A DNA stretch of 64,000 bases from a bacterium (GTDB lineage: Bacteria; Zhuqueibacterota; Zhuqueibacteria; Residuimicrobiales; Krinioviventaceae): the NCBI GenBank assembly GCA_963693055.1, contig OY843751.1, forward strand, positions 3,808,001 through 3,872,000, written 5' to 3'. The notes below the pieces were generated by a model, which saw only the letters and a program-made list of their open reading frames with translations, was not told the origin of the DNA and made no database searches. The position numbers and the translations under genes are program-made. Below are positions 21,963-43,490 of this stretch, piece after piece; positions within the stretch are counted from its first letter, which is position 1; every line of letters starts with the position of its first letter.

Positions 21963-21971
21963 GCAACATTA

Positions 21972-22002: not shown

Positions 22003-22015
22003 CTATTCAATATAC

Positions 22016-24628: not shown

Positions 24629-24966
24629 AGTTGTTACTCCATGGTTTACATTATGTTACTAGTATAACGATTTAGAATTGAAAATGTTTACATATTTCTC
24701 ACAACTTTTTAAAAAGCATTATATAATTCCATATTACGCAATTACACTATATTTGACAAACAAGCATAATACTGCATTCCCAAAAAATTTCAAATAATAT
24801 CAGAACTTGCTTATAATACAAAGGTTAATATAAAAAAAGCAATTGTAACTTGATCCTCGTTTTATAAATAATTATGTTGAATACGCTTCAGATTAAAATC
24901 ATATTTTTTTATTTTGCCGCAATGTTTCCATACGTAAAATTGTTATGTAAACACTTAAACTAGTAA

Positions 24967-25872
24967 ATGGGGTATTCAATGGAAAGTAAGGCTGGTCAAG
25001 AAATTCGTGCGTTTCATATCTTTCTAGTTATTTTATACATACTCTCTTTTATTTCAATCATATACTTTTTTTATAAAGGCTGGGATTATTATTCAACCCC
25101 CTTTCCTGAAAGACCCCGCCATGATGGTTACACACTCTTGAAACCCGGTGGAAATTACGGACATGGATTTGGCATTATTGGGTCCCTCATGATGCTTATT
25201 ATGTTATTGTACTCTATACGCAAGCGTGCACAAATATTTTACAAGTTGGGAAATATTACCAAATGGCTGGATATACATATCTATCTTGGCATTTTTGGTC
25301 CTTTGTTAATTATACTGCACAGTTCTTTCAAAGTAAACGGCCTGGTTGCAATCAGCTTTTACTCTATGCTGGCGGTTGCGCTTAGTGGTATAATTGGTCG
25401 TTATCTGTATTTACAAATCCCCCGTAACATACAAGGGCATGAGCTATCATTACTTGAACTCAAAAACATGGATGCTCAACTCTCTAAAAAATTAAAAAAT
25501 GAGTTTGATTTTTCAGATGACATGATTTCAAAACTGGAGCATTTGACCAAAAGCAGCCACCTCGAATCCCAAAATTCAATGGTTTTTCTGGTTAAATTGT
25601 TATTGGATGATATTTACAGAGCCAGAGTTTTTCGCACATTTAAAAAAGAAAATGCTTTTATAAAGAAATTGCCACCCAAACAGGTAAAAGATCTTTTAAA
25701 AATAGCTCGCAATAAAGTGATTCTTCACCGTAGAATTCTTGCATTGAATAAAATACAACAGCTCTTTCACTATTGGCACGTTATTCATAAACCTTTTGCA
25801 ATCATTATGATTATTATCATGTTTGTTCATATTGCAATTGCAATTACATTTGGATATAAATGGATATTCTAA
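24967..25872 (+). CDS. His-rich polytopic membrane protein, putative heme b / ferric-reductase-like TM subunit
   Basis: About 5-6 TMs with histidines HGFG, WLDIHIYLG, ILHSSFK, YWHVIHKPF, FVHIA; first gene of the cytochrome operon. Confidence 0.65.
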   Translation: MGYSMESKAGQEIRAFHIFLVILYILSFISIIYFFYKGWDYYSTPFPERPRHDGYTLLKPGGNYGHGFGIIGSLMMLIMLLYSIRKRAQIFYKLGNITKWLDIHIYLGIFGPLLIILHSSFKVNGLVAISFYSMLAVALSGIIGRYLYLQIPRNIQGHELSLLELKNMDAQLSKKLKNEFDFSDDMISKLEHLTKSSHLESQNSMVFLVKLLLDDIYRARVFRTFKKENAFIKKLPPKQVKDLLKIARNKVILHRRILALNKIQQLFHYWHVIHKPFAIIMIIIMFVHIAIAITFGYKWIF

Positions 25873-25873
25873 A

Positions 25874-27553: not shown

Positions 27554-29664
27554 TGAAAGCCGTATCTATGAAATATTTATTATTTCTACTTTTACTGCTG
27601 AATTCAATATTATTAGCAGTAACCAGTCCTCATGGGGATATAAAAATACCCTGCGAAACCTGTCATACTCCGGCTAACTGGCAGGTTAACAGAGAAACCT
27701 TAAAATTTGATCATAACAGCACCGGGTATCCGTTAACAGGTGTGCATAGCCAGATAGATTGCAAAGACTGCCATGAGAGTCTGGTTTTTCATCAAACTGG
27801 TGTGCAATGTATGGATTGCCATACAGATATTCACCAGGGACAGTTGGGCAAAGAATGCGAAACCTGTCATACCCCCTTAAACTGGGAAAACCGGCAGAAT
27901 ATGCTAAAAGACCATTCTCTTTTACGCTTTCCCTTGTATGGTGCACATGAACGCATTGATTGCGACGACTGTCACCATGCCGGCTTGACAGAATATGCCA
28001 ACACCCCTGTTGAATGTATCTATTGCCATGCGGATGACTATAACTCAACCCAAAATCCTGATCATAAAGAAGCACAATTCCCCACAACCTGTGATGACTG
28101 CCACCCCATACAATCTCTTACCTGGCAAACCCGTGAATTTGATCATTCATTTTACCCATTGACCGGTGCGCATCAAAATGTAACCTGTGCAGATTGCCAC
28201 CACGGTACCTATACCAACACGCCCAATACATGTTATGGATGCCATAACACAGACTATGCGGCTACTATCGATCCCAATCATCAGGCATTTGGGTTCGATA
28301 CAGACTGTTCACAATGTCACACTACTGATACATGGACCCGGACTGCGTTCGATCACTATCAAGCATCCGGCTTTGAATTGATTGGTGCGCACCAGACATT
28401 ACAATGCAGTCAATGCCACATCAACAATCAGGGAACCGGATTACAAAGAGATTGTTATGGCTGTCATTTAACAGATTACAATTCCGTCAAAGAACCTGAC
28501 CATCAACTTGGTCAATATCCTCACGAATGTACAATGTGCCACAATGTGAACAATTGGAGCCCTGCCGACTTTGATCATAACCAGACCGGATTTCCCCTTA
28601 CAGGCGCTCACCAGGCTGTTGAATGTTCGGATTGTCACGAAAATAATGTTTATGCCGGAACTCCATCGGATTGCTACTCGTGTCACGAACCGGATTTCAA
28701 GTCCGTGACAGAACCCAATCACGTCACCGGTAATTTTGATCACGTATGTACCATCTGTCATTCCACAACCACATGGACACCAGCAACCTTTGATCATAAT
28801 AATACCGGTTTTCCGCTTACCGGAGCACATACAACAGCAACATGTCTGGATTGCCATGTTAATGGATATACCAATACGCCATCAGATTGCTACTCGTGCC
28901 ACGAACCGGATTTCAAGTCCGTGACAGAGCCCAATCACGTCACCAGTAATTTTGATCATGTGTGCACTATCTGCCACTCTACAACCGCTTGGACACCCGC
29001 AACCTTTGATCATAATAATACCGGTTTTCCGCTTACCGGAGCACATACAACAGCAACATGTCTGGATTGCCATGTTAATGGATATACTAATACGCCGTCA
29101 GATTGCTATTCGTGCCACGAACCGGATTTCAAGTCCGTGACAGAGCCCAATCACGTCACCGGTAATTTTGATCACGTTTGCACTATCTGCCACTCCACAA
29201 CCGCATGGACACCAGCAACCTTTGATCATAATAATACCGGTTTTCCGCTTACCGGAGCACATACAACAGCAACATGTCTGGATTGCCATGTTAATGGATA
29301 TACCAATACACCAGCGGATTGTTTTTTCTGTCATGAAAACGAGTACAATAATACAACAGATCCCAATCATAAAGCTTCTCAATTCCCGGTTACCTGTCAG
29401 GATTGTCACAATACCAACAACTGGGAGCAAACCACCTGGGACCATGATGCCCGCTATTTCCCCATTTATTCCGGCGAGCATCGCGGAGAATGGGATGCAT
29501 GTTCTGATTGTCACACCAACGCATCAAATTATACCGTATTTGAATGTATCAACTGTCATGAGCATCAAAAATCTGAAATGGACAACGAACATGATGAAGT
29601 AAGAAACTATCAGTACCTGAGTACGGCTTGTTATAATTGTCACCCAAATGGGAAAGAAGATTAA
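27553..29664 (+). CDS. Multiheme c-type cytochrome, 28 CxxCH
   Basis: Signal peptide, 28 CxxCH counted, ~72-aa triheme modules; TAATG coupling to both neighbours. Confidence 0.92.
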   Translation: MKAVSMKYLLFLLLLLNSILLAVTSPHGDIKIPCETCHTPANWQVNRETLKFDHNSTGYPLTGVHSQIDCKDCHESLVFHQTGVQCMDCHTDIHQGQLGKECETCHTPLNWENRQNMLKDHSLLRFPLYGAHERIDCDDCHHAGLTEYANTPVECIYCHADDYNSTQNPDHKEAQFPTTCDDCHPIQSLTWQTREFDHSFYPLTGAHQNVTCADCHHGTYTNTPNTCYGCHNTDYAATIDPNHQAFGFDTDCSQCHTTDTWTRTAFDHYQASGFELIGAHQTLQCSQCHINNQGTGLQRDCYGCHLTDYNSVKEPDHQLGQYPHECTMCHNVNNWSPADFDHNQTGFPLTGAHQAVECSDCHENNVYAGTPSDCYSCHEPDFKSVTEPNHVTGNFDHVCTICHSTTTWTPATFDHNNTGFPLTGAHTTATCLDCHVNGYTNTPSDCYSCHEPDFKSVTEPNHVTSNFDHVCTICHSTTAWTPATFDHNNTGFPLTGAHTTATCLDCHVNGYTNTPSDCYSCHEPDFKSVTEPNHVTGNFDHVCTICHSTTAWTPATFDHNNTGFPLTGAHTTATCLDCHVNGYTNTPADCFFCHENEYNNTTDPNHKASQFPVTCQDCHNTNNWEQTTWDHDARYFPIYSGEHRGEWDACSDCHTNASNYTVFECINCHEHQKSEMDNEHDEVRNYQYLSTACYNCHPNGKED
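28660..29307 (+). repeat. Intragenic tandem repeat 3 x 216 bp (72-aa triheme module)
   Basis: Units start at 28660, 28876 and 29092 (TPSDCYSCH...CTICH...CLDCHVNGYTN); near-identical DNA. Confidence 0.95.
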
Positions 29665-30467
29665 TGAAAACAGCATTTAAAATCTTGATTTTTCTCAGTA
29701 TCTCTACAGCATTTTTTATCAATTATGTATACTCGAAAGACATACCCCACAAGCAATTGAAACTGGAATGTAACAGTTGTCACCTGACAGAAAACTGGAA
29801 TACTATTACGTTTGACCACAAGTCAACACAATTTCCACTGGATGGCAGGCACCATAACCTGGAATGCGTTGACTGCCACAATCTTGAAGATTTTTCTCAA
29901 ATCAGGATGGAATGCAAACAATGTCATCTTGATATTCACCAGGGGAAATTAACATATCCCTGTGACCAATGCCATACAACCAGTGGGTGGCAGGTCAAAG
30001 ATATTTTCAAGGTCCATGCCAATACAACATTCCCGGTACTGGGCGCGCACAGTCGGTTGGATTGCGATGCCTGCCATATATCAGAAATTGTGGGTGAATT
30101 TGCCCGCATTCAATCAGATTGTTATACCTGTCATGAACAGGATTACAAAAACACGACTGATCCCTCACACCAGGATTTTGGATTTAATCACAGATGCGAA
30201 GATTGCCACAGTATGCTCGCATGGTTTCCGGCAATGTTTGCCGAGCACGAATCCCGCTTCCCCATCTCTTCCGGAGCGCATGCAGGTGAATGGGAAAATT
30301 GCAATATCTGTCATACCAATCCCGGTAATTTCCAGATATTCAGTTGTCTCAACTGTCATGAGCATAATCAATCGAGTATGGTTGGAGAACATGACGAAAT
30401 AAGTGGATTTAGCTACAACAGTGATGCGTGTTACCGTTGTCATCATGATGGCAAAGCGGAGGATTAA
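29664..30467 (+). CDS. Decaheme c-type cytochrome, short paralog of the 28-heme protein
   Basis: Signal peptide MKTAFK..., 10 CxxCH; C-terminus (FPISSGAHAGEW...CLNCHEH...CYRCHHDGKAED) matches the upstream cytochrome. Confidence 0.9.
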   Translation: MKTAFKILIFLSISTAFFINYVYSKDIPHKQLKLECNSCHLTENWNTITFDHKSTQFPLDGRHHNLECVDCHNLEDFSQIRMECKQCHLDIHQGKLTYPCDQCHTTSGWQVKDIFKVHANTTFPVLGAHSRLDCDACHISEIVGEFARIQSDCYTCHEQDYKNTTDPSHQDFGFNHRCEDCHSMLAWFPAMFAEHESRFPISSGAHAGEWENCNICHTNPGNFQIFSCLNCHEHNQSSMVGEHDEISGFSYNSDACYRCHHDGKAED

Positions 30468-30469
30468 TT

Positions 30470-32068
30470 ATGAACTTTATAAAAAATAGTATTTTCATCC
30501 TGATTTTGATTTCTATTTCGAGTATTTCCGCACAAGAATCTGCTAAAGATTTTACCATTAAATATATCTCGAATGAAAACATTTATATTGATGGCGGCAG
30601 CATAGATGGACTTGCAGTTGGAGATACAATAATCGTAATGCGTAAAAACACTCGTATTGCGGTAATGACGATTAATTACACAGCAGATCATTCAGCGGCA
30701 TGTACAATTGTATCGCAAAGCATGCAAGTTCAACCGGGAGATTTGGCAAGGCCTTTGGTGCTTCGTCAGCAGGAAAAATTCGAAACCGTGTCTTCTCCAC
30801 TGAAAACAAGAAAAACCATACTACGCCAAAAGACCCAAACAAAACAGAATGATATGAAAATCAGGGGCAGCGTTTCTTTGCAATGGTACCATTTTGAAGA
30901 CATGTCTGAAGGAAATTTCAGTTTTGATCAACCGGGTGGACGATTGAATCTAAGAATGAAGAATGTGTTTACCAAAAACCTGAATTTCAGGATCAAAACC
31001 AAAAGCCGGTATAACAAACGGATGACGCATCTAAGCGGTACTACAGCCAGAAACGAATGGCGCAACCGCATTTATACCGTCAGTCTGAGTTTTGATGATG
31101 ATAATGCAGCAATAAATTATAAACTGGGACGTATTATCTCGAACAAATTCAGCGGCATTGGTTATATTGACGGTGCTTTAATACAACACAATACAACCGA
31201 AAATTTACGATACGGTGTTTTTGCCGGTACGCAACCCCAATGGCAGTATGCCGATTTCCAGACATCCATACAAAAATATGGCGCCTATATTAATTATTTA
31301 CAAGGCCAATATGGAGGCAAGCGGTTTGAATCTACCCTGGCCGCTGCCGGAGAATATCATGGTGCTGAGGTAAGCCGCGAATTTGTCTATCTGCAAAACA
31401 GCTTTTCTTCACAACAATTTAATCTCTATAGCAGTGCAGAACTCGATGTAAACCGTGACTGGCGCAAAGATAAAAGCGGCGAAAATATATCTCTTACCAA
31501 TCTTTATCTCAACTTTTCTTATGCTATTACCCGGAGCATTACAACAGGATTAAGTTTTGACGATCGGAAAAATTATTATACATACGAAATCCGTTCTGTT
31601 GCAGACAGCCTGTTTGATGATGCCATGCGTTATGGAGCTCGCTGGAATCTGAACCTCCGTTTGCCGGGCAACTATCGGGTGTATGCTAACGCGGGTATAC
31701 GTGCCAGAGAAACCGATACGGAAAACACATATTCCGGGGCATTGGGCGTCAGTAAAAACAATATTACTGATCACAACCTGTATGTAAATTTTTATGGATC
31801 AGGATTTCAAAATTATTTTTCAACAGGATTTAATGCATCTTTAAGAATGGGCAAATACTTTAGGGCTGGGCATAATGTAAACATGAGTTATGGTAACTAT
31901 TCGTATGTGTTGAGCACAACCAATACCACCCGTTCTAACCACTGGTTACGTTTAAACGGAAATTTACAGATTTTTAGACACATCTATCTCGATGAGAATT
32001 ACGAATATATCTGGGGATCGGACTCGCCAGGGCACCGGATATATATTGAAATGGGTTACCGGTTCTAG
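30470..32068 (+). CDS. Outer-membrane beta-barrel protein with N-terminal soluble domain (putative cytochrome-associated porin)
   Basis: Signal peptide, alternating aromatic beta-strands, terminal YIEMGYRF signature. Confidence 0.7.
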   Translation: MNFIKNSIFILILISISSISAQESAKDFTIKYISNENIYIDGGSIDGLAVGDTIIVMRKNTRIAVMTINYTADHSAACTIVSQSMQVQPGDLARPLVLRQQEKFETVSSPLKTRKTILRQKTQTKQNDMKIRGSVSLQWYHFEDMSEGNFSFDQPGGRLNLRMKNVFTKNLNFRIKTKSRYNKRMTHLSGTTARNEWRNRIYTVSLSFDDDNAAINYKLGRIISNKFSGIGYIDGALIQHNTTENLRYGVFAGTQPQWQYADFQTSIQKYGAYINYLQGQYGGKRFESTLAAAGEYHGAEVSREFVYLQNSFSSQQFNLYSSAELDVNRDWRKDKSGENISLTNLYLNFSYAITRSITTGLSFDDRKNYYTYEIRSVADSLFDDAMRYGARWNLNLRLPGNYRVYANAGIRARETDTENTYSGALGVSKNNITDHNLYVNFYGSGFQNYFSTGFNASLRMGKYFRAGHNVNMSYGNYSYVLSTTNTTRSNHWLRLNGNLQIFRHIYLDENYEYIWGSDSPGHRIYIEMGYRF

Positions 32069-32102
32069 TTTTTTACGTAGATTATTAATCAGGATGCACA
32101 CT

Positions 32103-33422
32103 ATGGAATCACTTTTTATATGGATAGCAGCAATACTTTTAATGGGGTTTGTCTTTATCCCTTATTTTATAAAATTCCGTAAGCAACAAAAAGCGGACTT
32201 TGACAGGCACCAGGAAGCGGTTTCTTTGGGAGCAGATAAACCCATAGCGCAATTCCCGCAAATTGATCTCATGCGATGCTTTGGATGCGGTTCTTGTGTA
32301 AGAGCATGCCCCGAAGGTGATGTGTTGGGCGTTGTTATGGGTAAATCCACTGTAATTAACGGATTGAAATGCGTGGGGCACGCGCGTTGCGCCGAAGCGT
32401 GCCCGGTCAATGCCATAACCGTAGGTTTGGGAGATATCAAACAGCGGGACGATATACCGGTGATGGATGAGTACAATGAAACATCCATTCCGGGGATTTT
32501 TATTGCCGGCGAACTGGGTGGATTGGCACTGATTAAAAACGCAATAGGCCAAGGTAAAAAAGTAGTCGACCGGATCGCTGCATCCATTTCAAAACGTGAT
32601 GATCTTTATGATGTAATCATTATCGGTGCGGGCCCGGCAGGCATCAGCGCCGCGCTAACAGCCATTCAGCACAAACTCTCGTATCTGGTCCTTGACCAGC
32701 AGGGATTTGGCGGTACCATTTTACAATATCCCCGCAAAAAAGTGGTCATGACCCATCCCGTAGAAATACCACTTTACGGCTGGTTAAATAACAGTGAATA
32801 TACCAAGGAAGAACTGCTTGCAATCTGGGATGACATTCATCAGCAGCACCATTTAAATATAAAAATTGGTGAAAAACTGGAAAAAGTAACAAAACAAGAC
32901 GATTTATTGAGTATCAAAACACAAAACAGCCTCTATAAAAGCCAAAGTTTAATATTGGCACTGGGACGCCGTGGCACTCCCAGAAAACTGGGTGTCCCCG
33001 GAGAAGAGTTGTCCAAAGTCATGTACAAACTGGTTGATGCCGAAAGCTTTCAAAACAATCACATTTTGGTTGTGGGTGGTGGTGACAGTGCGATTGAGGC
33101 TGCTGTAGGCCTTGCCATGCAGCCCGGCAATACCGTAACAATTTCTTATCGCAAATCTAAATTTTTCCGATTAAAAAAGAAAAACCAATACAATATTGAT
33201 GAGCTCGTTAATGACGGCAAAGTTAATATAATCTTTGATTCAAATGTAAAAGAAATTAATACAGATTCTGTACTCTTGCAAACGGATAAAGAAACGATGA
33301 AGCTTCCCAATGATTATATATTAATATTTGCCGGCGGCGAACCACCGTTCAAGCTGTTAAAAGATATGGGCATCACCTTTGGCGGCAGCGAAAAGACAGA
33401 GGTTTTGCAAGAGATTTCGTAA
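32103..33422 (+). CDS. Membrane-anchored 4Fe-4S ferredoxin + FAD/NAD(P)H TrxB/YpdA-like oxidoreductase
   Basis: N-terminal TM, CFGCGSCVRACP and CVGHARCAEACP, IIGAGPAG, VVGGGDSAIEAA; start placed at MESLF. Confidence 0.85.
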   Translation: MESLFIWIAAILLMGFVFIPYFIKFRKQQKADFDRHQEAVSLGADKPIAQFPQIDLMRCFGCGSCVRACPEGDVLGVVMGKSTVINGLKCVGHARCAEACPVNAITVGLGDIKQRDDIPVMDEYNETSIPGIFIAGELGGLALIKNAIGQGKKVVDRIAASISKRDDLYDVIIIGAGPAGISAALTAIQHKLSYLVLDQQGFGGTILQYPRKKVVMTHPVEIPLYGWLNNSEYTKEELLAIWDDIHQQHHLNIKIGEKLEKVTKQDDLLSIKTQNSLYKSQSLILALGRRGTPRKLGVPGEELSKVMYKLVDAESFQNNHILVVGGGDSAIEAAVGLAMQPGNTVTISYRKSKFFRLKKKNQYNIDELVNDGKVNIIFDSNVKEINTDSVLLQTDKETMKLPNDYILIFAGGEPPFKLLKDMGITFGGSEKTEVLQEIS

Positions 33423-34099
33423 ATGGAAAAAGTGAATTCAATATTATATCTTTGGGCTATTTGATAACCGTGCTTTTAGCTGACTCCCGGCCACTGATAA
33501 CTGATAACTTGAACCGGCCCTTTTGACACGCCAGTCCATCTTCCGGCCGCCAGGCTCCCCTACTCCATTCCTAACCACAAAAATAACAATAAAGCTTGGT
33601 AGCTTTTTTTATTTATCGTCCTATAGCATAGTTAGCTATCTGAATTGTAGCGATTATCCTGAAAAGCATTTATTTTTTCACTCTCTGGATATATTTTATT
33701 TTATACTTTGATTTTTACGAGTGTTGTTTACACAATGCCACAAAAGAGATAAAAAAAGGACACTATCTCGATAGAAATCCAATTCTACAATGTTCCTAAA
33801 ATTATTATTGATATAGTATTAAAACAGGGTTCTTTGACTATATTTGGTTTTTCGATGAAGTGCCGGAGCTTTGAGTGCAAAATTTTAGTATATCCATTAT
33901 CAAAACACATAGAGAATAGATATTGAATGGTGCTTATTCTGAAATTATCACTTTTTTATTCAGGAATAAAAAGTGTTATAAATAAAACCCGGTGTCTTAA
34001 CAATACATATTAGCTTTTTTTATACTCTCAAATTGTATAAATAAGTATATATTTAGTCAAAAGTGCAGATAATCGTATATAGGATCAAATATTTGAAAA

Positions 34100-34336
34100 T
34101 TAAAGAGATGCAGCTTTGGAATAAAATGTTACATTTCGAATATATTTGATCTCAATAGGAATATCCTGATAGTATTCATCAATCTGCGGATCTTTTTGAT
34201 ATGACGGATCCACATATACAACCAGAATAGGTTTACCAGCCTCGTTCCGGGATATACTTATCCCCTTGAAAAAACTATATTTTTCTAATTTATCTCTCAA
34301 GTGAACTTTGGCGGTGTTAATTTTAGTCATTTTCAT
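34100..34336 (-). CDS. Small protein resembling the N-terminal prodomain of the adjacent protease
   Basis: 78 aa, overlaps the protease stop by 14 nt; KGISISRNEAGKPILVVYV...IPIEIKYIRNVTF pattern. Confidence 0.65.
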   Translation of the reverse strand: MKMTKINTAKVHLRDKLEKYSFFKGISISRNEAGKPILVVYVDPSYQKDPQIDEYYQDIPIEIKYIRNVTFYSKAASL

Positions 34337-35438
34337 ACCATTTATAGGTTATGTTCGGATCATTTATTACGTTCTTTAATGTGTAACATAAACTTATTGG
34401 TTTATATTCACTTCCTTCAAAACCGGCTGTTTCTGCACCTGCAAATACTATACCGATAGCATAAAATTCACTATTATTTCGGTAAAAAACCAGACTACCA
34501 GAATCTCCAGCTTTGGAAAACGGTTCGTCAACTTTAATAGAATATACTTCAAAAATATCATTAAAGGAAAAGGTTTTTGTTTTATCATTTATATTATCCA
34601 TTTCAATTTTAATACCATCCATTGATGCTGATTTAACAGCCCCACGTGAATGACCAGTAGTTCTACCAAACTTTTCTACTTCTGTACCAATAACTACTGC
34701 TTCAGTATTGGGAGGATGGATATATTGCCCCTTAAAATCACCTTCAGGTATAACATTTCCTTTTATACGTATCTTACTTTTAAGCTTAGCAAAAGCTGCA
34801 TCATATTGCTTTGCATTTTCAGTACTCAAATGGTAATATTTTTCCAGATACCCAATAATATTATCCGAAGTACAACTGCTGTCAACACTGCCGGGATGAA
34901 ATATAGGATCACCTTCTTCTGCCGTATTGCACAATGCGAGAACGTGATTACAACTCAGTATCAATTTATTCTGGTTGTCAGGATCTATAAAAAAAGCGCC
35001 TAAAGTTCCGCTTCCGCCGTTACTATGCCCTATAGACAGTCCTATGGATAACGTCTTATTTTTCGTGCAAAACGGAGGATACCCGGTAAAGTTGTAATTT
35101 GATTGGCTTTTTGCAAGTTTCTCACATTCAGCAGGGCTGTCTGGTATTTTAATATTTCTTAATATTTTGATATTTACATCATCTTTTAATGTATCACGAA
35201 TTCTACAAGCCAATTCTGCTGCTTTACCGTTTTTTGATTTAACGCGTAATTCAAGCGAATAGTTTCCTGCTTTCTTTTTGGCATAGCCTACAGCTAACAT
35301 CCTTTGTGTAGAGTCTCTATAATCTTTAAAAAAATTTTGAAATTTTGGTTCAAGCTGTTTTACCTGATGAATTCCATTTAAATTTTTAATAATTTCTGAT
35401 TTAAGCAGTCTTACTTTTTCCAGTTCCAACCTTGCCAA
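34323..35438 (-). CDS. Cytoplasmic trypsin-like (S1, Nal1-like) serine protease
   Basis: GTLG, LSCNHVLA (His), YDAA (Asp), KFGRTTGHSRG, FSKAGDSGSLV (Ser), GIVFAG; no signal peptide; TTG start. Confidence 0.85.
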   Translation of the reverse strand: MARLELEKVRLLKSEIIKNLNGIHQVKQLEPKFQNFFKDYRDSTQRMLAVGYAKKKAGNYSLELRVKSKNGKAAELACRIRDTLKDDVNIKILRNIKIPDSPAECEKLAKSQSNYNFTGYPPFCTKNKTLSIGLSIGHSNGGSGTLGAFFIDPDNQNKLILSCNHVLALCNTAEEGDPIFHPGSVDSSCTSDNIIGYLEKYYHLSTENAKQYDAAFAKLKSKIRIKGNVIPEGDFKGQYIHPPNTEAVVIGTEVEKFGRTTGHSRGAVKSASMDGIKIEMDNINDKTKTFSFNDIFEVYSIKVDEPFSKAGDSGSLVFYRNNSEFYAIGIVFAGAETAGFEGSEYKPISLCYTLKNVINDPNITYKWYEND

Positions 35439-35910
35439 CCTTCCTGATTTTGTAGAATAATTGATTCAATAGCTCAAAAAATGTTGATATAATCAGAGCT
35501 ATAAAACTAAATAAAATCCGGTATTCATTGGATTCAAAAAAGGGGGCTCCATTTATTGCCAAACCCCATACTGCAAAAGCCAGGGTTGCAGCAAAAAGTT
35601 CCCACCAAGGGAAAACGGTACCCTCTGTTTTTTCAATTTTATACACAATAAGAACAAACAAAGGTGTACATGCTAAACAAAACCAATATATAATTGGCGC
35701 AAACAAAGGTATCTGACTCTTTAAGATGGGAATAAGAGACAAACCGGTTATATAAATTGTTATCGATTCAGTCGGTACATATTTTGTTAATGTGCCCAAA
35801 TCAATTTGGGGATTATTATTACTACCTGTTGTTGATTGAGCTCTATATCTGCTTGATGTTTTCTTACTACTTTCCCGCACCAAAGCGTATAAACTCATAA
35901 AACATCTCAT
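35401..35910 (-). CDS. Hypothetical 4-TM membrane protein
   Basis: LTKYVPTESITIY, CTPLFV, ATLAFAVWGLAINGAPF hydrophobic segments; overlaps the protease start by 38 nt. Confidence 0.75.
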   Translation of the reverse strand: MRCFMSLYALVRESSKKTSSRYRAQSTTGSNNNPQIDLGTLTKYVPTESITIYITGLSLIPILKSQIPLFAPIIYWFCLACTPLFVLIVYKIEKTEGTVFPWWELFAATLAFAVWGLAINGAPFFESNEYRILFSFIALIISTFFELLNQLFYKIRKVGKVGTGKSKTA

Positions 35911-36069
35911 TTTAATTGTTATTTGGAATAATTTATTAATATAACAATGAATTCAATAAAATCAAGATAATTGTGGTAAAAAATCTCAAAATAACTCAAT
36001 TTTGTTCTCATTATACACCCCAAACACAAAATGACAACCTTTTTTGCAAAACCTACTGGAAAATTCTCC

Positions 36070-38163
36070 TTATTTTAACAACAGACACTTTTGTGTTTTA
36101 TGAAAATTGTCTGCAGTCATTCTTATAAAATATATTCCGGAAGGATGTGCAGAAGCGCTCCACATTATATTATAAAATCCGGCAGGTGTCTCGCTATCAT
36201 AGATCGTTTCAACAAATTGTCCCTGGATATTATAAATTGTTATTTTTACGTCAGATAATTTTGGAACTGAAAAACGGATATGGGTCTCAGGATTGAATGG
36301 GTTCGGGTAATTGTTACCCAAAGCATATTCTGATGGAAAATTATCACTTTTCTCACTTACAGATACAATCACTTCAGGCAAAGGGCGTTTCCAAACCCCG
36401 CCATACTGAGTTCCAGCATAAAGAAATGTATCAGCTATTGTCAGAGATTGGACGCCTTGTCTAATAAATCCTGTACCGGTTGTAATATCCATCCAGGATT
36501 GCCCGAAATCCGTAGAAAGGAAAACACCTACAGGTGTTCCTGCAAAGAGATTTGTTCCTGATACTGCAAACGCATTAATATAATAGTCGGTTAATCCTTC
36601 ATTCACTTTGGTCCAGGTTTCACCCTTGTCATCAGAACGATATACACCCCCTCCATCATCCGTCCCGGCAAAAATATATGTTTTTAAAACTTTTAATGAT
36701 GTAATTTTTTTATCAAGTAAACCTGAATTCATTTCTAACCAGGTTTCTCCCTTGTCTGTTGTTAACAGTACCCCTCCTCCATCTGTACCCACAAAAAGAT
36801 GTGAATCCATAACAGCAAATGTGGTAACAAAATAATTTGTCATACCTGAACTTACGTTTTCCCAGGTATTACCATTATTCAAAGAAAGATGAACACCCGT
36901 GCCACTGGCTCCTGCAAATAGAATCGAATCCATGAATACTATGGATTGAATATCAGAAGACTTTAAACCTTTGTTCAAATTTTCCCATGTTGAACCATAA
37001 TTTGTTGATCGATAAATAAATCCCCCACTAGTCGCAGCAAACAGATTTGAATCCCTAACAACAAAGTCAGTAATTTTCATCCAATCCAGTCCTGTACTTG
37101 ATTCTTCCCAAAACGCTCCTTCATCGGAGGAGCGAAAGATGCCTCCGCCATCGGATCCGGCAAAAAGAAATGAATCAGTTGCAGTAAGGGCCTGCACGCT
37201 TGACATTTGCAAGCCCTGATTAACAGGTTGCCAGGAATTACCTTTATCAGTGGAAAGAAAAACACCTTTATTTTCAGTTCCGGCTAACAAATTGGTATCG
37301 ATAACAGCAAGTGCCTGAATTTTATCATACACTAATCCTGAATCCAGGGTTGTCCAGGAATCTCCATTATTCATCGACGACAAAATTTTCCCTCTGGCTG
37401 TACCGGCAAAAAGGGTAGAATCCATAATTACCATACACTCTACAGATGGTTTCATTGTCCCTGAATGCAATGCGTTCCAGGATGCACCATTGTCTGTGGA
37501 ACGAAAAACACCTTCCCATGTTCCTGCAAAAATTGTTGTATCAGAGATTGCAAAGCAACGTATATGATCAGCCCATATGCCATTGTTCGAATTTTCCCAG
37601 GAATTACCATTGTCCATTGACATAAAGATACCATTGCCGTGACTGCCAGCAAAAATAATAGTATCCAGAACTGCAATCGTATTAATCCGGGTATTGGTTA
37701 ATCCTGTATTCACCTCTTCCCAGGAATTCCCCTTATCCGTAGAACGAAAAATGCCCCCTCCATAGGTTCCTGCAAATAACATTGTATCATACACTGCAAG
37801 CGTACGAACATCGAGCTCAGTCAGTCCTGAGCTTGCAGGAATCCAGGATTCACCAAAATCCGGTAAAAAGTACACTCCATCACCATAGGTGCCTGCAAAA
37901 AGGAGGCTATCCATAAAAATAAGCGTATTCACAAACTGTATTTGATAATCAGGACTAGTCTTGCTCCAGGTTTTTGCGTTATTTGTAGACAGGAAAACAC
38001 CGTCACCATGAGTGCCGACAAAAATGTTTGTATCGGAAACAGCAAAGGCCATTACATCTCCACCAAAGGGTCCGTTTGTCTGCAGCCATTGAGAATAGCT
38101 GTTATTGATGAAAATTATAAAAAATGACAGAATGTAAAAAATTAAAATATATAATTTATGCAT
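36070..38163 (-). CDS. Secreted BNR/Asp-box beta-propeller repeat protein with T9SS-type C-terminal domain
   Basis: Many ~42-aa LFAGT.GGGIFRSTD.G.SW...N.GL repeats; NYPNPFNP...TQKCLLLK; start placed at MHKLY. Confidence 0.85.
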   Translation of the reverse strand: MHKLYILIFYILSFFIIFINNSYSQWLQTNGPFGGDVMAFAVSDTNIFVGTHGDGVFLSTNNAKTWSKTSPDYQIQFVNTLIFMDSLLFAGTYGDGVYFLPDFGESWIPASSGLTELDVRTLAVYDTMLFAGTYGGGIFRSTDKGNSWEEVNTGLTNTRINTIAVLDTIIFAGSHGNGIFMSMDNGNSWENSNNGIWADHIRCFAISDTTIFAGTWEGVFRSTDNGASWNALHSGTMKPSVECMVIMDSTLFAGTARGKILSSMNNGDSWTTLDSGLVYDKIQALAVIDTNLLAGTENKGVFLSTDKGNSWQPVNQGLQMSSVQALTATDSFLFAGSDGGGIFRSSDEGAFWEESSTGLDWMKITDFVVRDSNLFAATSGGFIYRSTNYGSTWENLNKGLKSSDIQSIVFMDSILFAGASGTGVHLSLNNGNTWENVSSGMTNYFVTTFAVMDSHLFVGTDGGGVLLTTDKGETWLEMNSGLLDKKITSLKVLKTYIFAGTDDGGGVYRSDDKGETWTKVNEGLTDYYINAFAVSGTNLFAGTPVGVFLSTDFGQSWMDITTGTGFIRQGVQSLTIADTFLYAGTQYGGVWKRPLPEVIVSVSEKSDNFPSEYALGNNYPNPFNPETHIRFSVPKLSDVKITIYNIQGQFVETIYDSETPAGFYNIMWSASAHPSGIYFIRMTADNFHKTQKCLLLK

Positions 38164-38318
38164 TAAAACACCCAACAAGTAAAAATTACTAAAACTTTTG
38201 TTGTATAATTACAACAAAAATATTCAAACCAGGTATTTCATATAATAAAAGATAAAAGGCAAGAGTTTGAATTCAAAGAATAATTATCAGGTTTAACCTG
38301 TGGATATGGGTGGGCATT

Positions 38319-38379
38319 AAACGCAAAAAGGCCCCGTTTCCGGCAGCCTCAAGATCTCATGATGTTGAATTGTCGAACC
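38319..38379 (-). repeat. Isolated degenerate copy of the tRNA-Glu-linked repeat unit
   Basis: AAACGCAAAAAGGCC (15-nt exact match to array units), GGCAGCCT, then GTCGAACC at near-identical spacing; hairpin retained. Confidence 0.75.
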
Positions 38380-38728
38380 TTTTTTATAAAGACTTTAAAC
38401 AACTACTTGATTTAACATGATTAAAGACAGAGATGTAACTAATCAGAAAAAAAAACGCTGAAAATGTTTTTCAATCAATATTTCATTAATCCAATTATTT
38501 TATCGATCAGTTCAAAAAAACTAGTATTTCTCCGGCCGAATACAAAAGCGCGAGTATTTTGGATTTCAAATTATATTCCGGAATTAATGTATATAATTTT
38601 TTGTATATTGATATATACCAAAGGGCTAAACACGAATTTTCACACTGGACGTCAATTTTGCATTGCAGGATTGTATTGCCGTTCGCGCCTGTTACCATTC
38701 ATGTTATATAGTTGAATCAAAAAATCTT

Positions 38729-39289
38729 ATGAAACTATACATTAAATACATGGTAAGCTTGCGATGCAAGATGATGGTAGAAGAAGAGTTGAAAAAACTT
38801 GGACTACATCACTCAAAAATTGAATTGGGTATGGTTGAAATTATAGAAAACCTATCTATAGAACAACGTGAGCAATTTAAAAAAAACTTGTCAAGATCAG
38901 GGCTTGAGCTGCTGGATGATAAAAAAAGTATCCTGATTGAAAAAATAAAAAATGTAATTATTGAAATGATTCATCATTCAAATGAATTACCCAAAATGAA
39001 TTATTCGGATTATATCAGTGAACAATTAGGCTATGATTATACTTATCTGGCAAACACATTTTCAGAGGTCAAGGGCATAACCATTCAGCAGTACATTATC
39101 AATCATAAAATCGAAAAGGTCAAAGAATTACTTTTATATGACGAGTTGAATCTTACGGAAATTTCCTATAAACTACATTATAGCAGTGTTGCCCATTTGT
39201 CCAATCAATTCAAAAAAGTAACGGGTCTATCTCCTTCCTTTTACAAACAATTGAAGCAAAAACGTAAGAAAAACCTGGAAAACATGTGA
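38729..39289 (+). CDS. AraC family transcriptional regulator (Bacteroidota-type)
   Basis: MKLYIKYMVSLRCK N-terminus; YDYTYLANTFSE...LNLTEISYKLHYSSVAHLSNQFKKVTGLSPS HTH. Confidence 0.9.
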   Translation: MKLYIKYMVSLRCKMMVEEELKKLGLHHSKIELGMVEIIENLSIEQREQFKKNLSRSGLELLDDKKSILIEKIKNVIIEMIHHSNELPKMNYSDYISEQLGYDYTYLANTFSEVKGITIQQYIINHKIEKVKELLLYDELNLTEISYKLHYSSVAHLSNQFKKVTGLSPSFYKQLKQKRKKNLENM

Positions 39290-39291
39290 TA

Positions 39292-39321
39292 TATGTAACA
39301 TTTAGCCATTTTTATGTAACA
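39292..39321 (+). promoter_or_regulatory. Putative AraC-type tandem operator
   Basis: TATGTAACA direct repeat at 39292 and 39313 (21-bp period) between the AraC gene and the DUF1611 operon. Confidence 0.5.
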
Positions 39322-39574
39322 CAATAACGGTTTGACAAGCCTACATTCCTATACAAGTATTTCTTGTTTATCTCAACAAAATCAGATTGTTTGGAACCTC
39401 TCGTATTGTTATGTGTTCCTGTTTTTATTTCTTTTACAATAACAGCTAATCTTGGGTTTATTAATCAATCCATATACCTTATCGCAACCCAACCACATGA
39501 AGCTACAAGTAAATACTGCAAAATACGTATATTCAATTATGAATACTGGTATTAACCTAATCAAAAGGTAACCA

Positions 39575-40669
39575 ATGAAAACAAAAGCGATTGTTTATAG
39601 TGAAAATGAATTCGGCAAGCTGGATGGTAAAGTTGCTAATGGACTGGCCAGACAATCAGAAAAATATGATATTCTTGGTATAATCGATAGTTCCAAAGCA
39701 GGGCTTGATGCCGGAGAGTATCTTGATGGAATAAAGAACGGAATTCCAATCTTTAAAAGTATTAAAGATTCGATTAAAAAGCTGGGGTTTGTTCCCGAAT
39801 CTTTAATTTATGGCATTGCCCCTCTCTCAACATTGCTTGATGATGACCAGAGGAATATATTATTTGACGCTATGAAAACAGGCATGAACATTATAAGCGG
39901 ACTGCCTGAATACTTTACTGATGATGAAGAATTTATACAGAAAGCGCAAAAATATAATGTAAAAATAGTCGATGTCAGAAAACCCCCGGCACGTAAAGAC
40001 TTGCATTTATTCTCTGGACGTATTATTAATGTCAATGTACCGGTCATTACTGTATTGGGCACAGATTGTGCCGTTGGCAAGAGGACTACCGCACTCAAAA
40101 TTGTTGAAGCCTTGAGACAAAATGGCTTAAATGCCTCATTTGTAACAACAGGTCAAACCGGTTTGCTTCAGGGATCAAAGTTTGGTATAGCAGTAGATGT
40201 TTTAACAACTGGATACTCTACCGGAGAAGTAGAAAATGCAGTTGTCAATGCTTATGAACAAGAAAATCCGGATATAATTGTCGTCGAAGGCCAGGGCTCT
40301 CTGGGGCATCCGGCATTTACCTCTTCAGTTGCAATTATAAGGGGATCTATGCCAAATGCAATTATACTTCAGCATCCGCCTAAAAGAAAAAAACGGTGCG
40401 ATTTTTCCAGCTTTAATATGCCCACACTTGAAAGTGAGATTGAACTCTTGCAAGTATTTTCTAAATCAAAAGTCATTGCCATTACAATCAATCATGAAGA
40501 CATGACTGACAGTGAAGTGAGTAATAAAATTAAAGAATATGAATATAGATTTGAAATCCCTGCAACTGATGTTTTAAAATTCGGATGTGATAAAATTGTT
40601 GAACAGTTATTTAACACTTTTCCGGAATTACAGGAAAGCGCACCGCTGGTATGTCAACTCCAAGATTAG
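39575..40669 (+). CDS. DUF1611 / DgcN-like (D-glutamate N-acetyltransferase-like) P-loop protein
   Basis: GTDCAVGKRTT, TGQTG, VEGQGSLGHP motifs. Confidence 0.85.
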   Translation: MKTKAIVYSENEFGKLDGKVANGLARQSEKYDILGIIDSSKAGLDAGEYLDGIKNGIPIFKSIKDSIKKLGFVPESLIYGIAPLSTLLDDDQRNILFDAMKTGMNIISGLPEYFTDDEEFIQKAQKYNVKIVDVRKPPARKDLHLFSGRIINVNVPVITVLGTDCAVGKRTTALKIVEALRQNGLNASFVTTGQTGLLQGSKFGIAVDVLTTGYSTGEVENAVVNAYEQENPDIIVVEGQGSLGHPAFTSSVAIIRGSMPNAIILQHPPKRKKRCDFSSFNMPTLESEIELLQVFSKSKVIAITINHEDMTDSEVSNKIKEYEYRFEIPATDVLKFGCDKIVEQLFNTFPELQESAPLVCQLQD

Positions 40670-41715
40670 AAATAGATCTCAAAAAAATTACCCATAATGC
40701 AACATTGCTGAAAGAGTTGTATGGATCAAAAGGGGTTGATGTTATTGGGGTGACAAAAGCCATTTGTGGAGAACCTGTTATTGCTGATGCTTTACTACAA
40801 GCAGGTATAAACATCCTTGCTGATTCAAGGATAGACAATATCATAAAAATGCGCAATTCAGGAATAGATGCCAAGTTTATGCTTCTAAGGACGCCCTGCC
40901 TCAGTCAGTCCAAAAGTGTTGTAAAATTTGCGGACATTAGTCTGAATTCTGAACTCATTGTGATTCAAAAACTTTCACATTTTGCAATAGAATCTCAAAC
41001 CACGCATCAAATCATTTTAATGGTTGAACTTGGAGATTTAAGAGAAGGTATCATGCCAAAGGATTTAGATCGTACTGTTCAACAGGTATTAAAGCTTGAA
41101 GGCATTGAGCTTGTAGGTTTAGGGACAAATCTGGCCTGTTTTGGCGGCATTAAACCTGATAATGAAAAAATGGCAATGCTGTCATCTATTGCAATGGATG
41201 TTGAAAAAAAATTTAGCCTCATATTGGAATTCATTTCCGGTGGCAACTCGGCCAATTATAATTGGTTCATTTCAGCTACAAATGTAGGAAAAATTAACAA
41301 CCTGCGGCTTGGAGAATCAATTTATTTGGGATGTGAGACACTTGACAGGGAACCCATTTCCGGATTGTTTACTGACGCGTTTACCCTGGTAGTAGAAGTT
41401 ATTGAATCTAAAATAAAACCCTCTCTTCCCTATGGAAAAACGGGTCAGGATGCCTTTGGAAACACCCCTGAATTTCAAGACCAAGGTTCTATGAGGAGAG
41501 CTATATTGGGGATTGGTTTGCAGGATATTCCGGTTTCCGGATTAACTCCCAGAATGGATATTGATATCCTGGGAGCAAGCAGTGATCACATGATCATTAA
41601 CGCAAAAAACATAAAACTACAGGTGGGAGACGAATTGAAATTTAATTTAAATTATGGAGCTTTGCTTGCAGCAATGACTTCGTCATACGTATTTAAAGAG
41701 ATTAAAAGCATATGA
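40651..41715 (+). CDS. Alanine/ornithine racemase family PLP-dependent enzyme (fold III)
   Basis: GVTKAICG (PLP Lys), ADSRIDNI, MVELGDLREG, TNLACFGG, SGGNS, LRLGES, GASSDH. Confidence 0.88.
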   Translation: MSTPRLEIDLKKITHNATLLKELYGSKGVDVIGVTKAICGEPVIADALLQAGINILADSRIDNIIKMRNSGIDAKFMLLRTPCLSQSKSVVKFADISLNSELIVIQKLSHFAIESQTTHQIILMVELGDLREGIMPKDLDRTVQQVLKLEGIELVGLGTNLACFGGIKPDNEKMAMLSSIAMDVEKKFSLILEFISGGNSANYNWFISATNVGKINNLRLGESIYLGCETLDREPISGLFTDAFTLVVEVIESKIKPSLPYGKTGQDAFGNTPEFQDQGSMRRAILGIGLQDIPVSGLTPRMDIDILGASSDHMIINAKNIKLQVGDELKFNLNYGALLAAMTSSYVFKEIKSI

Positions 41716-42386
41716 ATACTCGAGAATATTGCATAAAAGCTGAACAAAAAGAAAAAAGGATCAAACAGCTTTATCCCACTTTTCCCGTCAAAGATGACAA
41801 TTCACCACTGGTTAGTCTAAAAGATTCGGGATTTAGTTTAATGTTTGAGCCCACAATTATAGAAAATTATCAATATTTAGTAAGAGAAGCTGTTTATGAA
41901 AAAATTGGTCGCATAAGTAAAATACTGGTCCAGGACGATAAAGAATTGATCATTCGTTCAGCCTGGAGATCTTTTGAACATCAGCGTTTTTTATGGGAAA
42001 ATAAAGTTGTCTTTATGCAACAAACACATCCGGACAAATCATTGGAAGAAATAGCAGAAATCGTTTCTTTTTATATCGCTCCTGATACCTTGTCGATGCA
42101 CGCAACCGGTGGCGCTGTGGATGCGTTGATATTTGATTTGAAGAACAATTGTGTTATGGATTTTGGAACGAATGAGGGTTTAAAAATAGACCTGAATGAA
42201 AGATGTTACCCCTACCATCCGGATATATCATTCAATGCCCAAAAGAACAGAAAATTATTAATTGATCTGTTTGAAAATGAAGATTTTGTCGTTGATGTTA
42301 TAGAATACTGGCATTTCAACTATGGCAATGCCTGTTGGGCAATAGAAACAGGAAATGAAGCTATATATGATGTTATTAATCCATAA
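41712..42386 (+). CDS. D-alanyl-D-alanine dipeptidase (M15, VanX/DdpX-like)
   Basis: SAWRSFEHQ, SMHATGGAVD (SxHxxGxAxD), EYWHFNYG. Confidence 0.85.
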   Translation: MNTREYCIKAEQKEKRIKQLYPTFPVKDDNSPLVSLKDSGFSLMFEPTIIENYQYLVREAVYEKIGRISKILVQDDKELIIRSAWRSFEHQRFLWENKVVFMQQTHPDKSLEEIAEIVSFYIAPDTLSMHATGGAVDALIFDLKNNCVMDFGTNEGLKIDLNERCYPYHPDISFNAQKNRKLLIDLFENEDFVVDVIEYWHFNYGNACWAIETGNEAIYDVINP

Positions 42387-42477
42387 ATAATTTCCCCTCC
42401 TTTTAATCATTCTGATTATTTACATAAAAATATATTCAATTGTGTGACACCTTTTCCAATTCAAAAACGCCATTAAT

Positions 42478-43317
42478 GCATTCCGAAGGCGAGGTGGCCT
42501 CTTGTTGCGGGAATGATAAAATACGAGTCTGAACCACTGGACGATACTCTAATACCCCAAAACGCAAAAAGGCCGCCTAACTTGGCAGCCTTTAAAGCAT
42601 CCCCTGGGGGAGTCGAACCCCTGTTGCGGGAATGATAAAATACGAGTCCAAACCACTGGACGATACTCTAATACCCCAAAACGCAAAAAGGCCGCCTAAC
42701 TTGGCAGCCTTTAAAGCATCCCCTGGGGCGGGTTAAATCCCTGTTGCGGGAATGATAAAACCAGAGTCGGGATCACTGGACGATACTCTAATACCCCAAA
42801 ACGCAAAAAGGCCGCCTAACTTGGCAGCCTTTAAAGCATCCCCTAGGGCGGGTTAAATCCCTGTTGCGGGAATGATAAAATACGAGTCCGAACCACTGGA
42901 CGATACTCTAATACCCCAAAACGCAAAAAGGCAGCCATTCTTGGCAGCCTTTAAAGCATCCCCTAGGGCGGGTTAAATCCCTGTTGCGGGAATGATAAAA
43001 TACGAGTCCGAACCACTGGACGATACTCTAATACCCCAAAACGCAAAAAGGCAGCCATTCTTGGCAGCCTTTAAAGCATCCCCTGGGGGAGTCGAACCCC
43101 TGTTGCGGGAATGATAAAACCAGAGTCGGTACCACTGGACGATACTTGATACTCTTAAACGCAAAAAGGCTATCATTTCTGATAGCCTTTTAAAAGCATC
43201 CCCTGGGGCGGGTCGAACCCCTGTTGCGGGAATGATAAAACCAGAGTCGGTACCACTGGACGATACTTGATACTCTTAAACGCAAAAAGGCTATCATTTC
43301 TGATAGCCTTTTAAAAG
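42478..43317 (-). repeat. Tandem array of seven ~120-bp units: terminator hairpin + degenerate tRNA-Glu copy
   Basis: ACGCAAAAAGG recurs at 42562, 42681, 42801, 42921, 43041, 43159, 43280; tRNA-like segments start at 42478, 42597, 42716, 42836, 42956, 43076, 43196 and align with tRNA-Glu 43318-43389. Confidence 0.95.
43279..43314 (-). terminator. Intrinsic terminator of the tRNA-His/tRNA-Glu transcript (first array hairpin)
   Basis: Minus strand AAAAGGCTATCA-GAAA-TGATAGCCTTTTTGCG immediately after tRNA-Glu. Confidence 0.8.
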
Positions 43318-43389
43318 CATCCCCTAGGGGAGTCGAACCCCTGTTGCAGGAATGAAAATCCTGAGTCCTAACCACTAGACGAAGGGGAC
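43318..43389 (-). tRNA. tRNA-Glu (TTC), CCA not encoded
   Basis: GTCCCCT/AGGGGAT acceptor, D-loop AGTGGTTA, CAGGA-TTTTCAT-TCCTG anticodon arm, AGGGG-TTCGACT-CCCCT T-arm. Confidence 0.95.
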
Positions 43390-43416
43390 GTCTAAGTATT
43401 TTTTGGTGTAAATCAG

Positions 43417-43490
43417 GGTGAGTGACGGGACTTGAACCCGCGACGACCAGGACCACAACCTAGCGCTCTACCAACTGAGCTACACCCACC
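43417..43490 (-). tRNA. tRNA-His (GTG) with G-1, CCA not encoded
   Basis: G-GTGGGTG/CACTCAC-C acceptor, CTAGG-TTGTGGT-CCTGG anticodon arm, GCGGG-TTCAAGT-CCCGT T-arm. Confidence 0.95.

Follow-up and report, generated by a model that had tools for sequence, protein, structure and literature searches.

How some 30 kb of unrelated genes came to lie behind a single tRNA gene, and whether the repeats found among them mark their joints, is the question raised by the tRNA-Glu(TTC) locus of a bacterium of the uncultured phylum Zhuqueibacterota (GenBank assembly GCA_963693055.1, contig OY843751.1, positions 3,808,001 to 3,872,000). This whole stretch of 64,000 nt is referred to as the window, and coordinates are those of the window unless a genome is named. 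A sequence-only reading had proposed that gene cassettes were added serially at tRNA-derived repeats, in a manner reminiscent of integrons. The genome under study (G000, 6.5 Mb) was compared with its sister species (G001, over 40 kb around tRNA-Glu), with the same-family genomes G003, G004, G005 and G014, which have a tRNA-Glu locus and of which G005 belongs to another genus, and with G158, from another class of the phylum. tRNA genes were called by ARAGORN and Rfam, domains by Pfam, and unit searches were made by nhmmer, while sublocation terms for tRNA integration (J subsite) follow PMC4383910. We favour, with moderate confidence, a site-specific insertion at the J subsite of tRNA-Glu of a module containing an AraC regulator, of which a decayed junction persists at 38.3 kb, together with a separate array resembling tRNA-linked repeats (TLRs). 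The locus likely records ordinary site-specific insertion at a tRNA gene and not an integron-like array.

Insertion hotspot and the junction at 38.3 kb

A core gene encoding a GT2 glycosyltransferase lies only 115-218 nt behind tRNA-Glu in four of the eight same-family tRNA-Glu loci compared for synteny, and 30 kb behind it in G000. The segment from 13.3 to 43.3 kb therefore accumulated there in G000, which bears out the proposal that foreign modules were collected at the tRNA-Glu 3' end, and this 3' end is an insertion hotspot with approximately 30 kb of accessory DNA behind it. Inserts also follow tRNA-Glu in G004 (1.5 kb), G014 (4.6 kb, including a restriction-modification (R-M) enzyme 69% identical to the product of window 17535-20741) and G005 (4.9 kb), while G003 carries other genes. 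This comparison, suggested with the sequence-only reading as a check for cassette gain and loss at the units, did reveal inserts behind tRNA-Glu in some loci and none in others, with only one junction in the window demonstrable.

The G005 insert is a fresh example that fixes the junction to the base. It contains three R-M genes and no integrase, stands directly behind tRNA-Glu, and is bounded by a perfect 57-nt repeat consisting of the last 9 nt of the tRNA, the terminator and its tail. The duplicated 9 nt start at the T-stem/acceptor-stem junction, which is the J subsite of PMC4383910. At the distal edge GGTTCGATAATTCAACATC stands directly before the repeat and recurs with one change at window 38379-38361, and the end of the G005 contig matched, by eye, the start of the GT2 gene of G014. 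The features of the window that bear on the junction were:

43317..43389, minus strand: tRNA-Glu(TTC), intact, anchor of the locus (ARAGORN, Rfam; cloverleaf fold)
43267..43316, minus strand: own terminator (type A) and tail of tRNA-Glu (terminator comparison)
38729..42386, plus strand: module 1, comprising an AraC regulator, DUF1611, an alanine-racemase-fold protein and an M15/VanY D-Ala-D-Ala dipeptidase (Pfam)
38400..38412, minus strand: weak site resembling the IHF consensus, 21 nt inside the cassette edge
38361..38379, minus strand: 19-nt cassette-edge motif GGTTCGAYAATTCAACATC, exact in G000 and G005
38352..38360, minus strand: decayed copy of the final 9 nt of tRNA-Glu (acceptor 3' strand and discriminator), 5/9 matching, placed by its position relative to G005 and G158
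38318..38349, minus strand: orphan terminator hairpin with its tail, likely the terminator of the tRNA after displacement
11206..13281, minus strand: GT2 glycosyltransferase, core gene and distal limit of the zone (synteny with four relatives)

The 38.3-kb site is a real decayed junction composed of edge motif, decayed tRNA end and terminator, and is not simply an array unit. It had been described as a detached unit copy with an intact hairpin; the letters cited are present and the hairpin folds as RNA (-12.5 kcal/mol, GAAA loop, one bulge), but the edge motif sets it apart from the plain array units. The hairpin was not called by the terminator scan. The element GGTTCGAC is as far from the terminator as in the tRNA, yet stands 11 nt from the acceptor strand where the tRNA has 6 nt, and is therefore part of the cassette-edge motif and not an in-register T arm. 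A blastn search of 13282-42400 returned no tRNA fragment, and the 5/9 remnant at 38.35 kb was recognised through the adjacent motif. The 14-mer AAACGCAAAAAGGC occurs nine times in the genome, eight of them inside the window.

The edge motif was searched across 167 genomes of the phylum. The 19-mer was exact in two of them (G000 and G005), and 28 hits were obtained with no more than two mismatches, of which 25 were without the tRNA end and terminator and were regarded as chance matches. One further hit, in G158, consists of the motif, AGGGGAGGC as a tRNA-Glu-like end, and a terminator. A profile built from G005 and G158 only ranked position 38379 first in the 6.5 Mb of G000 (23/28, runner-up 21). 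Its top match within the 40 kb of G001 was the orthologous site (20/28), and the array units were absent from its hits. The orthologous spacer in G001 is a 142-nt decayed copy of a long array unit (61.7 bits), in which the flanks of a core resembling repetitive extragenic palindromic (REP) elements match the long unit with a score of 27, against 9.5 or less for 26 other copies of the core. That the AraC module ends in a true decayed junction is supported by this orthologue and by the edge-motif profile.

Whether the distal matches are members of a genome-wide terminator family unrelated to the tRNA was weighed against these results. Similar terminators do occur elsewhere, and by the terminator alone the 38.3-kb site (17.4 bits) is beaten by an unrelated terminator at C1:5878759 (20.1 bits); the terminator profile placed it second among non-array matches genome-wide (E=0.022). 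Its unit alignment score of 46.5 was equalled by one of 3000 intergenic background windows, which is a tRNA-Gln with its terminator. An nhmmer scan of locus and genome had been suggested earlier, and in the search limited to the 29 kb downstream it gave E=4.8e-5 for the 38.3-kb site and E=0.096 for the 36.0-kb site, the second-best match there. The edge motif and the 142-nt orthologue are independent of the terminator, so 38.3 kb is not a mere family terminator, and that interpretation of the site was dropped once the G001 long unit and the edge-motif profile had ruled it out. A terminator family is probably the right description of the 36.0-kb site, and as an account of the distal matches together it is the least probable of those considered.

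The IHF-like match at 38400..38412 is weak, and 444 of 30979 AT-rich 60-nt windows contain such a site; none was present at the equivalent junctions of G001, G005 and G158. A Xer/dif-like site was rejected as there was no XerD arm in a by-eye comparison with the consensus. Three edge-motif matches were found in viral contigs, all of them without a tRNA end or terminator and none with the longer pattern, and phages and plasmids gave only matches with E >= 0.07. The recurrence of the motif would also fit a broader scheme in which integrase-free cassettes with a common 19-nt edge are placed throughout the phylum, along with a terminator copy, at the tRNA-Glu T/acceptor junction by a host-encoded or tRNA-linked enzyme acting in trans, and stack into a capture platform anchored at the tRNA, with the array offering spare landing sites, giving an integron-like effect from unrelated parts. 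We regard this extension as rather improbable.

The pseudo-tRNA array

Between tRNA-Glu and the AraC module lies a tandem array, which had been counted as seven units. The array is real, with six complete units and a seventh that is half-decayed and has no hairpin:

43416..43489, minus strand: tRNA-His(GTG), upstream partner of tRNA-Glu (ARAGORN, Rfam)
42548..43266, minus strand: six complete units of 119-121 nt, each a pseudo-tRNA-Glu, a terminator (A, B, B, C, C, C) and a tail
42469..42547, minus strand: seventh unit with homogenised 5' half and decayed 3' half, proximal border of the AraC module

Tandem-repeat analysis of the window gave a 120-nt period spanning 42503-43382. The units are copies of tRNA-Glu from nucleotide 8 onward, without the 5' acceptor strand and with an altered anticodon loop, and are identical to tRNA-Glu at 20-21 of 28 positions in the 5' part and 33-37 of 40 in the 3' part. 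None was called as a tRNA by ARAGORN or Rfam, and an Rfam scan to E 5 gave only the two tRNAs as significant, with no homology to enterobacterial RtT/TLR. In the seventh unit the 3' half is identical to unit 6 at 21 of 34 positions, and this degenerate half recurs in G001, where it follows four complete units. Three terminator types are shared out over seven terminators, including that of tRNA-Glu itself, and their order differs between the species (A,A,B,B,C,C,C in G000 and C,A,C,A,A in G001), as does the terminator of the live tRNA. Two of the G001 units hold an insert of approximately 53 nt from the dispersed REP-like family.

A pattern scan of 125 genomes of the class found pseudo-copies in two, G000 and G001, although fragmented assemblies may collapse such repeats. 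The Glu unit is confined to the tRNA-Glu locus and is not dispersed genome-wide as REP elements and bacterial interspersed mosaic elements are. Four runs were used, all as contigs, of which X1 and X2 are possibly from the source sample and X4 and X5 resemble G001 and are thus not independent; none of the four spans the array, and a metagenome pattern scan for further array-bearing strains gave one chance match within a coding region. On these sequence grounds the 120-nt array is a genus-specific tRNA-linked repeat. The array probably predates the AraC module, since the displaced copy in G001 extends into the pseudo-tRNA 5' half. Growth of the array and insertion of cassettes appear to be separate processes, because the array units are without the edge motif.

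Several further features of the array and its relatives were observed. In most B- and C-type units (window 42548-43145) the tail and the tRNA 3' end are complementary, which extends the terminator into a long imperfect hairpin, and the G001 units retain the anticodon stem through an A-T to T-A change. The array terminators are A/T-flanked at either side and might also end transcription of the convergent AraC operon. Intact tRNA-Glu genes are tandemly duplicated in G047, where each copy has its own terminator, and at G101:C62:24578-24911, and the array may have started from such a duplicate. The CTGAG..TATCGAAG insert of the G001 long units is dispersed in G000 (29 matches, against 5-9 in shuffles) and belongs to a REP-like family of the form CCGG..CTGAG-variable hairpin-GTATCGAAG-GGCCGG, with approximately 25 copies across the genome (for instance at G000:C1:278732 and 279357). 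The inner hairpins of this family are similar to the hairpins of GIY-YIG cassettes, and no Y1 transposase or GIY-YIG gene adjoins the copies; a link to REP-associated tyrosine transposases (RAYT/Y1) was rejected, the nearest copy being 7.9 kb away.

Repeated tRNA ends are also present at other tRNA genes. Behind tRNA-Asp(GTC), from G000:C1:5147242 onward, five copies of its last 7-10 nt with a terminator follow at +83, +535, +627, +2989 and +5168; two of them enclose an 87-aa GIY-YIG gene, and RHS-like toxin/immunity fragments separate the later ones. In G001, tRNA-Asp is followed by an insert of 22.5 kb whose integrase lies next to the displaced fragment and terminator, which is the canonical form. 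The distal end of a 30-kb tRNA-Met island with an integrase and a tRNA-Met fragment (G000:C1:2551600-2552400, minus strand) bears a tandem pair of small GIY-YIG genes, the second truncated, which are split by a tRNA fragment with an inserted hairpin. At tRNA-Pro(TGG) (G000:C1:3672754) one 116-nt duplicate of the 3' end and terminator with a CCGCC..GGCGG hairpin was found, and behind it a toxin-antitoxin-like pair similar to the pair behind tRNA-Glu in G004.

These loci bear on another origin of the units, as relics of small GIY-YIG cassettes of tRNA 3' ends that have lost the nuclease gene, with a nuclease acting in trans that would nick the hairpins and drive array growth and capture. At the tRNA-Asp locus of G000 the terminator tail is the same and repeated tRNA ends enclose the GIY-YIG gene, a tRNA lies within 1.5 kb at 11 of 30 homologue loci, several of these loci carry a pseudo-tRNA from the D arm and a GGGG tail before the start codon, much like a unit containing a gene, and a gene-less form of the cassette exists at the G001 tRNA-Asp. 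Against this, none of the 30 homologue loci is at tRNA-Glu, no such gene stands behind tRNA-Glu at the four loci of a genome-collection scan, and the Glu units do not have the hairpin that is inserted in the pseudo-tRNAs of GIY-YIG cassettes. The five matches to GIY-YIG (PF01541) in the genome are all outside the window, and the SRM hairpin motif, with 10 matches in G000, was absent from 13-44 kb and from the 40 kb of G001. We give this origin little credence.

Distal modules and the integron analogy

The gene order given earlier for the minus-strand modules was confirmed. The features beyond the junction were:

36070..38178, minus strand: module 2, a secreted BNR/sortilin-repeat protein with a Por secretion tail (Pfam)
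36010..36046, minus strand: former weak unit and sigma70-like promoter match of module 3, not significant as a unit
34100..35910, minus strand: module 3, a hydrophobic 169-aa protein, a trypsin/Nal1-like protease (371 aa) and a 78-aa open reading frame (Pfam; absent from G001)
33480..33610, minus strand: at the opposite edge of module 3, a decayed REP-like element with a remnant resembling a terminator, not supported as a unit
13282..33422, strand unassigned: rest of the zone, comprising a LamG/fn3 secreted protein, a type IIG/ISP R-M enzyme, HNH, a TPR protein and a multiheme cytochrome cluster, with no unit detected at its junctions

The module 1 proteins are 93-99% identical in amino acids to those of G001, the BNR protein of module 2 is only 71% identical to its orthologue, and the nearest homologues of module 3 are at most 39% identical, with no family assigned to it by PADLOC or ESM Atlas. 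Differences between G000 and G001 at 4-fold sites amounted to 55/400 (0.14) in the AraC module, 259/955 (0.27) in the flanking genes and 101/236 (0.43) in the BNR gene; the contrasts with the flanking genes gave Fisher p values of 5e-8 (AraC) and 6e-6 (BNR) with sites treated as independent. This unequal divergence indicates that the modules have different histories.

A weaker unit copy had been proposed at 36.0 kb. Its 19/24 match is right, and its score of 33.0 was reached by 26 of the 3000 background windows and at four other places in the window, one of them within the protease gene (38.0). It has no hairpin (-1.4 kcal/mol) and overlaps TTGTCA-16-TATAAT, an 11/12 sigma70-like match that is among the two best of the region. 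The site would thus be a promoter, possibly recruited from an eroded or half-deleted terminator unit. In its favour as a unit, the right edge of the segment missing from G001, which is without module 3, falls at this site, with the same join present in a contig of run X4, and no other site except that at 38.3 kb ranks higher in the 29 kb downstream. The remnant at 33.6 kb scored 29.5, which 85 of the 3000 windows equalled, and its flank test was negative. Two candidates were rejected. As a direct repeat enclosing module 3, the 36.0- and 33.6-kb sites were equalled in score by 141 of 1000 shuffles; as decayed long units, the G001 BNR-FAD spacer and window 33.5-33.6 kb reached 22.5 and 29.5, and their flanks scored 3 and 5.5, values also seen among ordinary REP-like copies.

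The proposal of a unit between every cassette was accordingly not supported, with 36.0 and 33.6 kb at background and no unit detected at junctions within 13.3-33.4 kb, two of which bear another palindromic repeat. Nor was decay found to increase with distance from the tRNA: there is one significant distal site, and the nearest remnant, the 3' half of unit 7, is about as decayed.

The accreted zone holds other features. The palindromic repeat, CCAAGGC..GCCTTGG followed by GAACGAG, lies at 13540-13580 and 17375-17440 and flanks the LamG/fn3 gene; a regular expression detected no copy in G000 besides these two, and G001 has related copies at two junctions and lacks the LamG/fn3 gene. Also absent from G001 are the type IIG/ISP R-M enzyme and HNH nuclease of window 17346-21962. 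The TPR gene (22016-24628) is present twice in G001, one copy being only 76% identical. The cluster at 24967-33422 encodes a multiheme cytochrome, an outer-membrane protein and an FAD-ferredoxin oxidoreductase, the last with matches at E<=1e-60 in 11 of 61 genomes, and a 216-nt tandem repeat (3.1 copies, 28663-29321) lies inside the 703-aa multiheme cytochrome gene, whose G001 counterpart is 71 aa shorter.

Integrons are arrays of unrelated modules in a row with repeats between them, an IntI integrase and attC folds. The locus shares with them the row of unrelated gene modules and the repeats between some of these, so that each unit might be a recombination site and every module a cassette of a capture platform. 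On the top strand, the tail of most B- and C-type units can indeed fold back onto the tRNA 3' end into a single long hairpin, in seven of 12 units only 3-19 of 300 tail shuffles were equally stable, and the presence/absence edges of module 3 fall near 36.0 and 33.5 kb. The fold-back advantage was missing in the other five units, the units have no edge motif, the direct repeat around module 3 is not significant, and 20 of the 30 kb are without a unit at junctions. IntI was absent from G000 and G001 (TIGR02249 best 81.4 bits, cut-off 265), and an attC fold was rejected as nothing rose above shuffles (z -0.5 and +0.8). The RYYYAAC..GTTRRRY pattern was matched once at 38.3 kb, gave short overlaps within the array, and was absent from 36.0 and 33.6 kb. 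Co-oriented single-gene cassettes each followed by a site were not found in the zone, where the modules are multi-gene operons with their own promoters in both orientations. The integron analogy of the sequence-only reading is largely refuted already, and a capture platform is very improbable.

Mode of insertion and known systems

The absence of an integrase from the window, noted earlier, held: eight recombinase matches were found in G000 (seven tyrosine and one serine, a resolvase), the nearest more than 500 kb away. Two matches on the tRNA-Glu contig of G001 are both more than 500 kb away, and there was none on the tRNA-Glu contigs of G003, G004, G005 and G014. Module 1, with no integrase of its own, fits the form of a cis-mobilizable element (CIME).

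The crossover chemistry, the enzyme and the order of events we infer as follows. A recombinase acting in trans or since lost would have inserted the AraC-DUF1611-racemase-dipeptidase module at the tRNA-Glu 3' end, and a crossover at the T-stem/acceptor-stem junction would have displaced the old 3' end and terminator downstream. The inserted module would then have decayed to a CIME-like relic, at whose junction functional att sites are unlikely because of the decay. The array likely grew and was reshuffled by unequal recombination over approximately 40 nt of near identity, and the BNR, protease and more distal modules may be older insertions with eroded junctions.

Several observations weigh against such an insertion. 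The edge motif is found in only four of the 167 genomes, the decayed G001 copy included, and tRNA-Glu(TTC) was looked for in G158 and not found, so that the anchor of its motif is only putative. No recombinase is linked to the edge motif near tRNA-Glu in G000, G001, G003, G004, G005 or G014, and the G004 and G014 inserts have neither a tRNA fragment nor the motif. Excised circles had been suggested as a check, and no circular junction was seen in the four contig runs. The AraC module is less diverged than the core genes despite its decayed borders, which needs later allele exchange or a slower rate. Finally, the duplicated host-like terminator exceeds what a recombinase core needs, and homologous recombination could yield it.

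This last point belongs to a different explanation, in which tRNA-linked repeats serve as tracts of homology, and RecA-type recombination, or tandem duplication with random loss, adds, exchanges and removes modules that copies of the tRNA end and terminator flank, with no site-specific enzyme. The G005 repeat takes in the whole terminator (57 nt), the units are mosaic and reordered between species, an integrase is missing in cis, and homology with G001 falls off approximately 150 nt inside the junction and not at it, all of which would suit homologous exchange. It leaves unexplained a 19-nt non-tRNA motif exactly at the T/acceptor junction across genera and classes, and we consider it unlikely, although a more serious contender than the other alternatives.

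Both tRNA-linked repeats and the accretion of genes behind tRNAs have been described before, and the locus as a whole is not surprising. What is added is a 19-nt edge motif common to cassettes that have no integrase and carry unrelated cargo, in three lineages of the uncultured phylum. The motif provides a defined substrate with which to ask what enzyme brings integrase-less islets to tRNA genes; the locus also lets a TLR-type array and a cassette insertion be ordered in time. No paper on the motif or the locus was found in the full-text literature, with subscription papers and supplements outside the scope of that search.

The array compares best with the E. coli TLRs, including tyrT rtT, which are tandem non-coding, terminator-associated units that end in a copy of the tRNA 3' end and whose function is unknown (PMC8144298). 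It differs from them in tRNA homology that begins at nt 8 (65 nt, not 18-19), in its 6-7 units and in its unrelated sequence. Small GIY-YIG genes between tRNA-end repeats in G000, at tRNA-Asp and at the tRNA-Met fragment, and a similar terminator tail recall the Ssn/SsnA nucleases with their SRM repeats (PMC11893778), whereas the tRNA-Glu locus has no nuclease gene, SRM match or inserted hairpin.

For the insertion, CIMEs as well as integrative and mobilizable elements (IMEs) are reported to stack in tandem at tRNA 3' ends, bounded by short 3'-end copies (PMC5704250), and the Dehalococcoides ssrA islands have a 15-bp conserved non-tRNA motif just upstream of the repeat (PMC3146451). The locus described here resembles these systems in its modules behind a tRNA gene, in the short 3'-end copies as bounds, in the many modules without integration genes and in the upstream motif, of 19 nt in this case. 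In contrast to them, none of the cassettes here was found to carry an integration module, the repeat comprises 9 nt of tRNA plus the whole terminator, one junction is demonstrable in the window, and a pseudo-tRNA array lies between the tRNA and the cassettes. The Islander islands (PMC4383910) carry an integrase, whereas the AraC module has none and its putative fragment has decayed to 5/9; they resemble it in a duplicated part that starts at the T-stem/acceptor-stem junction and in a fragment, in its case putative, that lies downstream in the same orientation.

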